A stretch of DNA of 64,000 nucleotides, from positions 1,800,985 through 1,864,984 of the forward strand of contig NC_057757.1 of NCBI RefSeq assembly GCF_004010195.1, written 5' to 3'. Made by a program: the position numbers and the translations under genes. The notes under the pieces are model-generated. The model did not search any database, was not told the DNA's origin, and saw nothing but the letters and a program-made list of their open reading frames with translations. This DNA comes from Chiloscyllium plagiosum. Taxonomy: Eukaryota. This document shows, in pieces, positions 11,301-61,400 of the stretch. Within the stretch, counting starts at the first letter, position 1, and each line of letters starts with the position of its first letter.

Positions 11301-14300
11301 CTCTATGACTCTATGACTGTGAAACCATTGGAACATACACAAACAGTAAAGGTTGTGGATGCTTCTGGACAGTTACAGCTTACAAGACGAGAATCAACAG
11401 ATTTTGTTGGGGAAGGGTTCCAATCTCCCTGGGAGGTATTGCTTCATGATGGGATAGAGCATCGTCCAGAACAATCAACCCCTGGCCAGAGGGAGAAGGT
11501 GGGAGAAGCTTTATTTGGCTATTCTCCTGGGAAAGCATCATTTTGAAACTTGATTCTGAAATCTTCCCTGAAACTCTCACTCAGCCAGTAGGAATGAGGG
11601 CCTGTCAGTTATGAGGTTTCAATCTCAAGCCACTCATTTCCTGCCCACCAATTCTGTACGTCCACGTGGGCAGTTTGTCTCCTTACCTTGTGCTGGGAGG
11701 AAGTAGACCAGAACTACCAGCGATGAGATGAGAACACAGGGAATGATGATGTTGATGACGTAGAACAGTGGTTTCCTCTGAATGATCAAGAAGAAAATGA
11801 TCTCCTGGTACTCAATATCATCCATCGAAAACTGGCTGTTAATGTGCTTCTTAGCTGGTTTGTGTTTTATCGTCCACTCCCCGTTTTCTGATGAAAGGAA
11901 GTAGATACTTGGCAGTGAGTTTTGTTTTAGATTAGATTCTCTATAGTGTGGCAACAGGCCCTTCGGCCCACCAAGTCCACACCGACCCTCCGAAGAGTAA
12001 CCTGAGTATCAGATATTGAGGTATACAGAGAGCGATGGGAACTTCAGAAAGAATTATGCAAGCATTAACTTATACCTAAGAGCGAATTAAATAACAAACA
12101 TTAGGTACCTGGGAGTGAATTATGTAAACAGGATAGGAGATTGTGGAATGACTAAATCTGATTTAATCAAGTACAGCAGAGGACCACAGGATGGTAAGGG
12201 TCAGAATATCTGGACAGATCATGGACAGGAGGGGAAAGTGCCAAAACAGGATGATGTAAGGATCAGACCATGGGACCTTCAAGATCAGACTCTGCACTTT
12301 CTGAAAATAAATACAGACCTCACATGACACCAAGTTATACTCCAACAGGTTTATTTGAAATCACAAGCTTTCAGAACACTGCTCCTTCGACAAATTAAGT
12401 CACCTGAGGAAGGAGCACGCTGAAAGCTCGTGATTTCAAATAAGTCTGTCGGACTATCACCTGGTATCACCTCACTTCGGACTTTATGCATCCCAGTCCA
12501 ACACCAGCACCCCACATCAAAATAAATAAATTAATATTTGAGGGCAGTGAACAGATAACACTAATTGGAGCGAGCATCCCAAAGACTAAAATTTAAAAAC
12601 ATATAGTTATTTAACAGTACCAGTGAAATCTTCAGGATCTATATGGATCCACTCAATCAGCGTTCCCTCATCTGTTGATAACTCCAAGTTAATTTCATGG
12701 GCATTGTATGCTTGGGACCTGAAAAAAAAGAATTCAACCATTTTTCTGATCAATCCATTTCTTCTTCTTTCTCCTTTCCCAATAGCCTTATAACCCTAGT
12801 TCATTTGCATACATCCGTAAAGACAGTTGAGAAATAATCCTGTACCCCATCTCTGGCCATTTCAATATTGAACCGATCATGCCAGCATGTCGACCTCAAA
12901 CACCAGCCTCCCAAACCACAAGTAACAGTCATTCCTGCAGATAATAAAGACAAAGGTTCTGCACAATTGGGAAAGTCAGACTTTGCAGTTCAAAAGTACA
13001 CAGATGGTGTACTTGGAGGGGAACTTATGTTCCCATGTATCCCTCTGAATGGTAGTGGTTGTAGGTTTGGAGGGTGAAGTCATATAATAATAGAAATGTA
13101 CAGCATGAAAACAGACCCTTCGGTCCAACTCGTCCATGCCGACCAGATATCTTGAATTAATCTAGTCCCACTTTCCAGGACTTGGCCCATTTCCCTCTAA
13201 GTGGGCATCACTGACAGGTCTGAGATTTATTGCCCATCCTACTTGTGATGATGTGGCTTACTTGGCCATTTCAGAGGGCTGTAATGAATGAACCATGTTG
13301 GTGTGAGACTGGAGCCTAAAGTAGGTTGCACCATGCAGGGACAACAGAGTTCCTTCTGCGAAGGGCAAGATGAATTTTCATATCAATCCCACAGCTTCAT
13401 GGTCACTTCCACTGAGATCAGCTACTTCCAGATTTTCATGTTGGGAAATGAATTCTCATCCTCTGCATTCTAAATCCAAATGTCTGGATCACTCACCTGA
13501 TAACATAACCACAACACCACTGTGGCAAAACAGAGTCCTTTGCAGGATAGTAAAATTAAATGTTTAGTTATTACATCAGGGATGGTGAATGCAGAATTCA
13601 CCATCCAAAATATCCTGGATTATCCCTTGAGAATCTGTCTCCTTCTGATGTTCTAGCAGGTTTAACATCAAAGCCTTACTATCCTACATTTTAGTTCCAA
13701 TTTGAGTTTTATTCACTCGTGGAATGTGAGTGTGACTGGCTGGGACAGCCTTTATTGTCTATCCCAAGTGCCATTGAGAAAGTGGTAAGTGAGCTGCCTT
13801 CTTGAACCACTGTAATCCATTTGCTGTGGGTAGACCCACAAAGCTGTTCAGAGAATGTTTCAGGATTTTTACCCAGTGACACTGAAGGAACAGCAACATT
13901 TTTCCAAGATAAGATGCTTAATGGCTTGGAGGGGAACTTATGTTCCCATGTATCCCTCTGAATGGTAGTGGTTGTAGGTTTGGAGGGTGAAGTCATATAA
14001 TAATAGAAATGTACAGCATGAAAACAGACCCTTCGGTCCAACTCGTCCATGCCGACCAGATATCTTGAATTAATCTAGTCCCACTTTCCAGGACTTGGCC
14101 CATTTCCCTCTAAACCTTTCCTGTTCATATACCCATCCACATGCCTTTTAACTGTTGTAATTGTACCAGCCTCCACCATTTCCTTTGGCAGCTTATTCTG
14201 TATGTGCACCACTCTTTGGGTGAAAAGGTTGCCCCTTAGTTCCCTTTTAAACCTTTCTCCTCTCACCCTTAACCTATCCCTTTGAGTTTTGGACTCCCCC

Positions 14301-58400: not shown

Positions 58401-61400
58401 ACCTACTAAGTGAAAGAGGGAATTTGTGACAAACCTTTTAGCCCAGCCAATAGTGAGAATGTGAACTTGCTACAATAGTGACTGAGGTGAATTGTATCGA
58501 TATATTTAAGGGAAATCTGGATAAATACATGATGCAGAAAGGAATAGAAGACTATGCTGGTGGGGTCTGGTTAAGAGGAAGCTTGTACAGAGCATAAAGT
58601 TTACCATGGGCCAAAAGGGGTGTTTCTGTGCTGTAAACACTGTGTAATTCTTGTAGCTCTGCATTTGAATTCTCCATGAGCTCACATTGTCTTCACAGCC
58701 CAGCAATGCCTCGCCTTTAGGCTGGAGTTTTTCTCTATGTTCCCTTGCTTAGCTCCACTGTGCACAATTTCCAAATTGTTCAGAACTCGAGAACAGTGTT
58801 GTAACTTGTCCAGAATTAGGCGCATTCAGAAATATCATCCTTTTAAACATCACAAGCTGCATTTCTTTTAATGCACTGACACCATGTTCCATGTTCTATT
58901 GTTTAGATCCTCTGCTCTCCAACTCCTGACAGCTCCATATTTTCCTTGCTCTACTGCAAATGTGGTGATAATGCCCAAGGATACCTTTTAAATCTGTTTA
59001 CTGAATTAAAGTTCTCCACTTAAAAATAGATTGACAAGGTTATTTAGTGTAGAACATAAAGAGTGGGAATGGACGTTAGCCCCTTGAACTGACTCTGACA
59101 TTAATTAAGATCACAGCTAATCTGATTATGGCCTTACCCCCACTTTTGATTTCTGCCCACCATAACCTGTGACTGTTTTGTCGATCAAAAGTATGTCTCA
59201 GCCTTGAACATAGTCAGTGGCCAGGAGAAAGTGAGGACTGCAGATACTGGAGATCAAAGTCGAGAGTGTGTTGCTGGAAAAGCACAACAGGTCAGGCAGC
59301 ATCAGAGGAGCAGGAGAATCCACGTTTCGGGCTTAAGCCCTTCATCAGGAATGAGCCGGGGGCTGAAAGATAAATGGGAGGGATTAGGGCTTGGGGAAGG
59401 ATTATCCCAGTCCCAAGCCTCCATCTCGGCACCACCCTCCTGACCTGTCCATCACCTTTCCCATCTATCTGCTCCAACCCCCCCCCCCCCGACCTCTCCC
59501 GACCTCTCCTCACCTTCATCTACCTATCGCTTTCTCAGCTACCTTCCCCCAACCCCATCCCCCATCTCTCAGCCCCCTGTCCACAAGCCTCATTCCTGAT
59601 GAAGGGCTTATACCCGGAATGTCGATTCTCCTCCTTGGATGCTGCCTGACCTGCTGTGCCTTTCCACTGACACACTCTCACCCCATATTCAGTGGCTGTC
59701 TTTCACTGCTCTCTGTTGGAGAAAATTTCAGAGATTGACAATCCTATGAGAGAAGGAATTTCTCTTTTGCTTCTGTCTTAATGGGAGCTCCTTTATTATT
59801 AAACTCTGTCGCGTAGTTTCAGAATCTTCCATGAAAGGAACCTCCTTTTTAGAATTTTGTAATTCAACAAGATCACCTCTTCTACTTGCTGTTTAGCCCC
59901 AGTTTGATTAATGTTTCTTCATAAGGTAGCTGCTTCGTCTTAGGTGTCAACCTGGTGAACTTTCTGTGAACTGCCTCCTTAAATAAGGAAACCGAAAGTG
60001 CACACCGTACTCTGAGTGGCATCTCGCCAATTCCCTATATACTTGTAGCAAGACTTCCTACATTTATGTTTAAAAAGAAGTACCCTGGACTTGAATACAA
60101 ATTCAAAGCATCTGTGTGAAAGTTTGGTAAACTACTGGTTGGGCCTCAGCTGGAGTGTTGCTTCAAATATTAAGTTTCACATTTTCAAAAGATATTGAGG
60201 CCTGGAGAGAGTGGAGAAGAAATTTACGAGGATGGGGGACTTCAGTTATCAGACAAAATTGAGCAGCTGAGATTGTTCTCCCTAAGGTTTAAAGGGATAT
60301 TGGCAGAACGAGAGGGGGAAATGAGGAGAATTGCTTTCTATCGGTTGAATTGGAGAGATCTGAAACATGCTGCCTAAAAGGATAGTAGAAATCCATTTAA
60401 AAACGGCTTTCAAAAGGGAGTTATTTGCAGGGCTATACGGAAAAAGCAAAGAAATTGGGCTAATGGGAAGACTGTGTTTTAAAGAGGCACAATAGGCACA
60501 GTGGGCTGAACGGCCTCCTCTGCCATATCATTTCGTAAAACTGTATCTCCTCGACTCTGATTTCTGCCACCTTTTAGTACATGTGACAATAAATTCTGAT
60601 TCTCACTTAACCTCTCTCCAGTTTAGAACATTAGCATGTGAAAGCACCACATAATATAATTGGTTCCTTTTTAACCTAGACTCTGTAAGGATACAGGATC
60701 AACTAGGGTGGGAGAGAATGCAGCTCATCATCTACGAAGTCACGAGAAGGACGTGAACCGTGATGCAAGTCCTGGGAAAGGTTCGAACAAACTGAGCTTC
60801 CTTGTAGCATTTTGTGTTTTGTTCTGTTGTTAGGATGTGGCATGGGGGTTATCATCCCAAAAGTGATAACTCCTGAAGTCAGAATATGACTGAGCTGTGA
60901 CTCTATTTTCCACCATTATCCTTAGCAGCTAAAGATCTGGATGTACTCTGTGACTAGGTTCTCAAATGCAGCCTGCCAGTGTTGGTGAGAGACCAGAGGC
61001 CAGCCAGTAGCTGACAAGCTCAGAAGCCCCCACTTTTAAGAGAAAGTCAGAGGGCTGACATCTTGTGGCTGTAGAGATTACTTACGTGGAACCACATCTG
61101 CTGTGTTCGAGTTGGGTTTGGGAAGGAGTTAATTGACCCTTTGCAATCTCAAAAAGGGATTACACACATTATTGAGAGGCTCATGTGATATTATCTGTTG
61201 GCACCAATTCGTGTTCCAGGTTATTTTCATTCAGATAGTTTATCAGTGTGCAAGCAGTCTGATGTAATGAAGAAAACCAGGATTAGTTTGAGATTGTTGT
61301 AATTAGAATCATTGCTGTTATGGAGACAATCTTATCTATGCTAGCTTTTTAGTATCGAGCTAGATTCTGCCCGCTGCAGTTAAATATCTTTTAAATTGTT

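Follow-up and report, generated by a model that had tools for sequence, protein, structure and literature searches.

Hammerhead motifs in a 64-kb stretch of the Chiloscyllium plagiosum genome appear to lie in decayed insertion stubs of three Penelope-like element families

Minimal hammerhead ribozymes (min-HHR) occur in the pseudo-long terminal repeats (pLTRs) of metazoan PLEs (Penelope-like elements), which belong to the retrotransposons (Cervera and De la Pena 2014, PMC4209133; published work is cited throughout from the portions of each source covered here). Here, we describe the hammerhead-bearing repeats in 64,000 nucleotides of Chiloscyllium plagiosum (NCBI RefSeq assembly GCF_004010195.1, contig NC_057757.1, positions 1,800,985 to 1,864,984, forward strand), a stretch referred to at its full length as the window, and their relatives in the genome (taken as 3.56 Gb, also for extrapolation). 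A sequence-only reading of the window by a model had placed about a dozen motifs, in families A, B and C, on short Penelope-derived repeats. All 12 places belong to three real repeat families, whose exact motifs number 1,305 (A), 5,005 (B) and 420 (C) genome-wide against zero in the reversed control of each. A profile search of the window gives 15 A-type, 5 B and 2 C matches in total, some of them beyond the 12 places. The copies and related fragments are listed here with the state of each motif; head-to-head pairs have one arm on each strand.

14449-14586, plus strand: family A pLTR-end copy (profile search) with a long tail end and a decayed hammerhead at 14457 (16.2 G>A, stem II broken).
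15603-15721, minus strand: family A copy (profile search) with a short tail end; hammerhead at 15689 with A6>G.
24110-24236, plus strand: family A solo insertion with a 13-bp target-site duplication (24102-24114 / 24235-24247); motif at 24111 with intact core, stem II and ACGT stub, the 5' strand of stem I being replaced by target DNA.
36685-36834: family A head-to-head pair in which the hammerhead core is missing its 5' half; the target-site duplication has 19 bp with 1 mismatch.
39359-39553: family A head-to-head pair (profile search), short arm 39359-39421 (minus), long arm from 39421 (plus); hammerhead at 39425 (plus) with G12>A.
47616-47979, minus strand: family A copy with the end of a GIY-YIG frame, an internal deletion, then hammerhead stem II and tail, which links stub and coding element within the window.
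59223-59694: family A head-to-head pair with 3' untranslated region (UTR) on both arms; hammerheads at 59348 (minus; N17=G) and 59596 (plus; A13>G); 13-bp target-site duplication with 1 mismatch.
63363-63435, minus strand: family A fragment, tail only (profile search).
12310-12511: family B head-to-head pair of an older subfamily, short arm 12310-12391 (minus), long arm 12400-12511 (plus); both motifs defective, that at 12393 (minus) lacking the CUGANGA half and that at 12404 (plus) carrying a deletion in stem II.
29246-29395: family B head-to-head pair whose plus arm begins within stem II; motif at 29281 (plus) without the CUGANGA half.
34644-34732, minus strand: family B copy; hammerhead at 34726 with A6>G and a broken stub.
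32424-32635: family C pair, head-to-head, with its short arm on the minus and its long arm on the plus strand; hammerheads at 32518 (plus; G12>A and 16.2 G>A) and 32499 (minus; several changes in the core); 15-bp target-site duplication with 1 mismatch.
22219-22948, minus strand: decayed piece of a reverse-transcriptase (RT) region, a relative of family A at 67% DNA identity, to which no hammerhead is joined.
63659-63994, plus strand: decayed piece of an element body, likewise a relative of family A, at 69% DNA identity.

Family membership thus holds at every place, but intact state does not: under a strict descriptor, which requires the core, a stem II with 4 bp or more, a stub that is palindromic and U-H, one of the 12 copies passes, that at 24111, the other 11 being mutated or without half of the core. 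The window contains this one strict motif, against a mean of 0.01 in 100 shuffles, which does not support the roughly dozen working ribozymes implied by the sequence-only reading. Rfam covariance models gave no hammerhead match in the window at E up to 1, and matched only as weak hairpin hits to microRNA models and one long non-coding RNA region.

At the level of the families, the parts of a minimal type I hammerhead (core, stem II and U16.1-H17) are all present. Shared between families are only the CUGANGA/GAAA core, an extra nucleotide after A9, the first G-C pair and a palindromic stub; stem II differs and yet pairs, as had been proposed, and natural copies carry, by inspection of pairing, GGGC/GCCC, GGGT/ACCC, GAGTC/GACTC-type, GGAGC/GCTCC and GTTACC/GGTRAC. 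The extra nucleotide was counted in an unselected sample of 100 stretches of 10 kb at fixed positions on contigs C1-C40 (962,144 non-N bases, about 1 Mb): it is A in 57, T in 4 and C in 1 of 62 descriptor matches to a pattern that requires it, and is present in 47 of 47 strict matches when made optional. The stub is ACGT in A and C as first read, but the AAGCTT given for B holds only for the older B subfamily of the window, the family stub being AGCT followed by A17 or U17. Helix I, which has 4-5 bp in the minimal hammerhead class, reaches 4 bp in a single young A subfamily, has 3 bp in families B and C and 2 bp in the main A subfamilies, and is often lost in the short copies, or stubs. ViennaRNA gave stem II for each of the four copies folded, and stem I for none but those of family C and the young A subfamily, a dimeric hammerhead being beyond its model. 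This conservation of core, extra nucleotide, G-C pair and stub around stems that differ but pair suggests that selection on the hammerhead acts in the source elements.

Related variants were also seen. Matches at 34458-34567, 35118-35219 and 49750-49814 (minus strand) are older A-related lineages with the same tail start and a different stem II, and represent further hammerhead families. Several copies of the older B subfamily (e.g. loci L170, L210 and L247, L-numbers being labels of extracted genomic loci) have U3 and/or A8 in the core; these do not establish a separate U3-A8 lineage, A8 being largely explained by CpG decay.

Long copies of all three families, found by DNA search and then extended, run from a decayed RT and GIY-YIG frame (loci L156-L161) through the 3' UTR into the motif. 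Pfam RVT_1 matched the upstream frame of B above its cut-off (E 3e-10) and those of A (0.035) and C (0.008) below it, and Pfam GIY-YIG matched C below cut-off (0.0017 and 0.011); five of nine fragments in one fragment set gave no Pfam match, and a PDB sequence search with the family B RT returned nothing meaningful. Atlas GIY-YIG clusters gave 0.94 for A and 0.96 for B. A CX4CxxC linker between RT and endonuclease is clear in B, decayed in A and absent in C; since a CX2-5CxxC linker is a feature of Neptune and Nematis PLEs (PMC8557442), A and B are likely Neptune-like and C likely Poseidon-like. The copies further show what is expected of endonuclease-bearing PLEs, namely RT followed by a C-terminal GIY-YIG upstream of the 3' pLTR (in decayed frames, with several matches below cut-off), a 30-40-bp tail, an inverted 5'-truncated copy and a target-site duplication. 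Because the long copies of every family continue upstream into such a frame, the short copies can be read as end pieces of three PLEs, and we are confident in reading the three motifs as minimal type I hammerheads from the pLTRs of three protein-coding PLE families, as the sequence-only reading had in part proposed, and their genomic copies as passengers. A CA-rich stretch of variable length was also noted between the stop codon and the remaining 3' UTR of family B (L111-L135).

The genome-wide number of motifs is very large, as had been supposed. The unselected sample holds 47 strict motifs, or about 49 per Mb, whereas its reversed control and all 10 of its shuffles hold none; this density extrapolates to about 167,000 per genome (Poisson 95% range 123,000-222,000). 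Its 212 core-covering copies scale to about 750,000 per genome and its 329 tail-bearing copies (A-type 227, B 69, C 33) to about 1.17 million; the family A profile also gathers related lineages, and the Poisson ranges of all such scaled counts do not allow for clustering and small contigs. In long copies, non-CpG mismatch is alike in core and tail for A (12/227, 0.053, vs 49/957, 0.051) and for B (6/289, 0.021, vs 39/1230, 0.032), so that A and B copies decay neutrally after insertion. In C the core is somewhat better kept than the tail (6/230, 0.026, vs 53/827, 0.064; p 0.02, subfamilies pooled), an observation that weighs against the reading favoured here. An earlier form of the comparison on all unselected copies (A 0.033 vs 0.072, B 0.070 vs 0.079, C 0.028 vs 0.072) was set aside because local alignment favours intact cores and the clusters pooled subfamilies, and was replaced by that on long copies.

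Same-strand neighbours within 1 kb, as a dimer in cis would need, accompany 21 of the 212 core-covering copies (about 10%) and none of the listed window copies. Minimal motifs are reported to be inactive as monomers and weakly active as dimers (PMC4209133), or to need the protein of the element for cleavage (PMC11167929). Neutral decay, rare tandem neighbours and this published weak activity together make passengers the best reading of the copies. That they instead form a large functional load of ribozymes, cleaving host transcripts under selection, we judge very improbable: some 49 structurally complete motifs per Mb, copies in poly(A) RNA reads on both strands and the position of many window copies downstream of a RADX-like first exon would suit such a load, but the core decays neutrally in A and B, stem I has 2-4 bp that are often lost to target DNA, the published activities are low or protein-dependent, and the reads, from a library poorly suited to end mapping, show no spot where many begin or end.

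The stubs have a regular anatomy. Their 3' ends cluster at two sites 30-40 nt apart, at about +90/+125 in A, +85/+122 in B and +77/+115 in C (C3 of the hammerhead core being position 0, and predicted family A cleavage falling between +27 and +28). Solo copies with target-site duplications of 10-20 bp were found for A (24), B (6) and C (1). Head-to-head pairs combine one long with one short arm in 46 of 52 cases in A (p 5e-9), 24 of 24 in B (p 6e-8) and 2 of 3 in C, and fold-back centres vary between pairs. This arm rule fits the two internal RT starts and the two-strand extension of an Anolis element, which argues that each hairpin was built during insertion. It also does not support the proposal of the sequence-only reading that the motifs were spread by separate non-autonomous elements; short copies moreover match the ends and the sequence of the three protein-coding PLE families. 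Independent elements of that kind, SINE (short interspersed element)- or retrozyme-like, transcribed, processed by the ribozyme and mobilised in trans, would account for the uniform 90-130-nt length with target-site duplications and for a few short tandem units (a 334-bp unit in L196 and a 409-bp partial tandem in L086/L087), and PLE-derived retrozymes have been described (PMC4209133; bioRxiv 10.64898/2026.07.22.740005). Against this, the upstream TATA box is missing from a solo stub, the core retained by the copies would be lost on cleavage, the arms obey the long/short rule around variable centres, subfamily variants are by inspection the same in short and long copies, tandem neighbours are rare, and cleavage-site junctions are not enriched (265 vs 197 at a control site). 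Tandem units each with an intact hammerhead, by which non-LTR (long terminal repeat) retrozymes are recognised, do not describe these copies, and we consider independent elements improbable. Two local arrangements are recorded: on the minus strand of L196 (about 2135-2655), a tandem unit with an internal deletion holds two young A hammerheads at a distance of 334 bp, a candidate retrozyme-like derivative or cis dimer, and contig C5 (58609948-58610353) carries a tandem array of about 42-bp units of the family A tail start, with seven matches listed.

Unselected tail-bearing copies have their 5' ends at -14 to +5 in 98 of 227 A and 30 of 69 B cases, and at +26 to +30 in 7 and 1. Genome-wide, patterns that demand non-templated flanks count 5,694 A junctions at -4; the cleavage site has 265 and the control position +31, 3 nt downstream of it, has 197. 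No pile-up of 5' ends was found at the cleavage site, where one solo copy (L137 flank) starts exactly. B junctions number 1,031 at -8 vs 138 at -11, an excess estimated at about 3.5-fold after filter correction. In both families the edge base is the A of an initiator-like hexamer, BBCABW. About 32 nt before the edge, B has a TATA box (at -40 to -38; 36 of 57 body-bearing copies) and A has a weaker word of the TTTAT type (at -37/-36; 18 of 60 copies). Directly before the edge, G is found in 2,974 of 5,694 A junctions (52% vs 26% expected) and in 23 of 30 B loci (about 80 of 100 listed junctions, counted by eye). In L300, L307 and L314, all three of the solo copies with a clear duplication in the -4 set, the G separates a perfect duplication of 14-15 bp from the element, and it is not templated by the other arm in L298, L304, L306, L324 and L330. 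Work on L1 has related such an extra G to copying of the cap.

The position of the edge on an initiator-like A, the TATA or TATA-like box 32 nt upstream, the frequent extra G and the lack of a cleavage-site pile-up make it likely that the stubs are run-off copies of capped, uncut RNA. We accordingly favour, with some reserve, a reading in which the window copies are decayed insertion stubs of the three families, those of A and B arising from internal RT starts and run-off at the capped, uncut 5' end of the RNA; for the capped-start run-off taken by itself, our leaning is modest. A Pol II promoter in the upstream pLTR (TATA box and initiator) would place the RNA start ahead of the CUGANGA core, by 4 nt in A and by 8 nt in B. 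The protein of the element would nick both target strands and initiate cDNA at the two sites of the tail, some 90 and 125 nt downstream, as the Anolis element does in vitro, and synthesis would proceed to the first RNA base and sometimes into the cap, giving the extra G. A single cDNA would leave a solo stub and two cDNAs joined at their ends a hairpin, and the ribozyme, kept by selection only in source elements, would cut slowly and solely as a dimer or with help of the protein. Long copies may come from read-through to the 3' tail or from transfer of a short cDNA, both being compatible with the data.

The same elements could also yield short copies by ordinary 5' truncation, RT starting at the 3' tail of a long RNA and dropping off or switching just past a folded or protein-bound hammerhead. 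Microhomology with the target or the other arm at most junctions agrees with this, as do 5' ends scattered from -14 to +5 instead of falling on one base and the heavy 5' truncation known for PLE copies (PMC8557442). A structural block, however, predicts ends at the 3' side of stem II and not past a whole copied core; truncation does not account for an edge on an initiator-like A 32 nt behind TATA or TATA-like boxes in two families of different core spacing, and it leaves the G outside the duplication in L300, L307 and L314 unexplained. We hold truncation to be a possible but rather unlikely origin.

Several observations weigh against capped run-off and its protein-coding sources. No intact frame or intact full-length element was recovered among the long copies extended. 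Compared with a site 3 nt upstream, the B edge is sharper by only about 3.5-fold, the subfamilies covered by the -4, +28 and +31 patterns overlap but differ, the A TATA-like word (TTTAT) is weak and, by the pattern used, in a minority of copies, and C has a TATA word at -53 to -47 in 42 of 61 copies with too few short copies for an edge test. The G excess is confounded because the other arm or the target duplication can supply a G in most fold-back pairs: inverted arms account for 15 of the 23 B loci that have the G, and for many A cases. The three clean solo cases come from a set filtered for non-C, and an earlier mixed A set, sorted by eye, had G at 7 of about 24 true junctions. In vitro, G and T are added without a template at R2 junctions (PMC13000458), which weakens the cap-copy argument, and an element of D. 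virilis has a TATA-less internal promoter (PMC2377424). Finally, a loose RNA end at -4, described next, could in part stem from subfamilies with different upstream sequence.

RNA data came from one single-cell poly(A) run (X20), of which about 2% was read. On an A copy, 2,605 reads of both strands were placed, with loose ends at -4 and at the tail ends, -4 being the sole 5'-side loose end among the six best supported; a further run (X21) gave 0 placed reads. In the X20 library, neither the A nor the B copy showed a point at which the starts or ends of molecules gather, or a pile-up of read starts, and neither its reads nor the genomic junction patterns gave a trace of cleavage. Of 4,434 reads on a B copy, about 1,800 carry poly(A) at +53 to +58. 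An A(A/T)TAAA signal at +38, 10-15 nt before this position and with a GU-rich stretch behind it, is present in 43 of 57 B copies (reference site L037:1539-1559, +38 to +58), whereas a signal at the corresponding place was not found in A and occurs in 2 of 61 C copies. Family B copies scatter ready-made poly(A) signals across the genome, and host genes could find poly(A) sites in the approximately 245,000 B ends that the genome holds.

More tentatively, the pLTR may be organised as a true LTR, with a TATA box, a capped start, the hammerhead in a terminally repeated R region that closes with a poly(A) site (B), and then two RT starts, the roughly one million stubs being fossil strong-stop cDNAs, some with a copied cap; we regard this layout as conceivable but doubtful. 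If it were true, full-length copies would need cDNA transfer to the RNA 3' end, and the hammerhead would work as a switch, taking off the cap at the 5' copy or shortening the 3' copy. The value of the stubs lies in their scale and in what they record: about one million insertion ends offer an in vivo read-out of PLE transposition and of the role of the hammerhead, they indicate an uncut template, and they give exact predictions of an RNA start at -4 (A) or -8 (B) and a poly(A) site at +53 to +58 (B).

Other features of the window were noted in passing. A GC-rich open frame at 33552-34445 (plus strand) matches the N-terminal part of RADX (Pfam E 1e-9) and is likely a first coding exon, which would place the copies downstream of it probably in introns. 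Sequence upstream of the motif at 15689 (15693-15780, minus strand) resembles the 5' body of the element, as seen after the tail in L196, and not the full 3' UTR, and marks a rearranged copy. A direct repeat of 189 nt (13012-13200 / 13925-14113, 100% identity, 913 bp apart) is a recent duplication or an assembly overlap. Further repeats presumably include HE1-like SINEs and CR1 tails of the kind known from sharks, and a search of the window found no tRNA genes.

PLE minimal hammerheads, tails and inverted arms are already known from published work. Like the min-HHR of PMC4209133, the motifs here combine a type I core, an extra nucleotide after A9, a G10.1-C11.1 pair and a palindromic 15.2-16.2 stub without helix III, and occur as several consensus families per genome, mostly as single motifs from truncated PLEs with some close opposite-strand pairs. 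That study counts about 4,000 motifs in coelacanth and about 9,000 in Xenopus, against about 170,000 extrapolated here, with different descriptors that make the numbers not directly comparable; in the parts covered, it names no shark and gives the motif no position with respect to the RNA start. A literature search for hammerhead, shark and Penelope found no relevant report in open-licence literature, of which supplements may list shark motifs, and a report of the promoter spacing, extra G, poly(A) site or start-site, cap and strong-stop reading was likewise not found there, supplements aside. Non-LTR retrozymes (bioRxiv 10.64898/2026.07.22.740005) are likewise PLE-derived, have a type I hammerhead and are reported from one cartilaginous fish, but are tandem arrays with a hammerhead per unit, whereas copies in the window stand alone or in head-to-head pairs.

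In endonuclease-bearing PLEs the insertion unit, as described by Arkhipova et al. (2013, PMC3846280) and Craig et al. (2021, PMC8557442), comprises a pLTR, an inverted 5'-truncated copy, a 30-40-bp tail and a duplication, and shares with the stubs the head-to-head arms, the tail on one arm, the duplications and the microhomology joins; one rotifer pLTR has a putative TATA box plus initiator. In the portions covered, those studies read solo pLTRs as products of recombination or deletion and palindromes as self-priming, whereas here many solo copies have their own duplications and a preferred 5' edge. Another closely related system is PAc, a Poseidon element of Anolis carolinensis studied in vitro (Frangieh et al. 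2024, PMC11167929), which initiates internally at two sites, extends both strands, uses uncut RNA and shows protein-assisted cleavage. It agrees with the stubs in two internal RT starts bounding the tail, nicking and extension of both strands, an uncut template and the absence of cleavage-site reads, and differs in that its templates had chosen 5' ends, with no start site, cap copy or poly(A) site in the text covered. The long/short arm rule and the 5' edge counted here are genomic counterparts to the in vitro findings on PAc.

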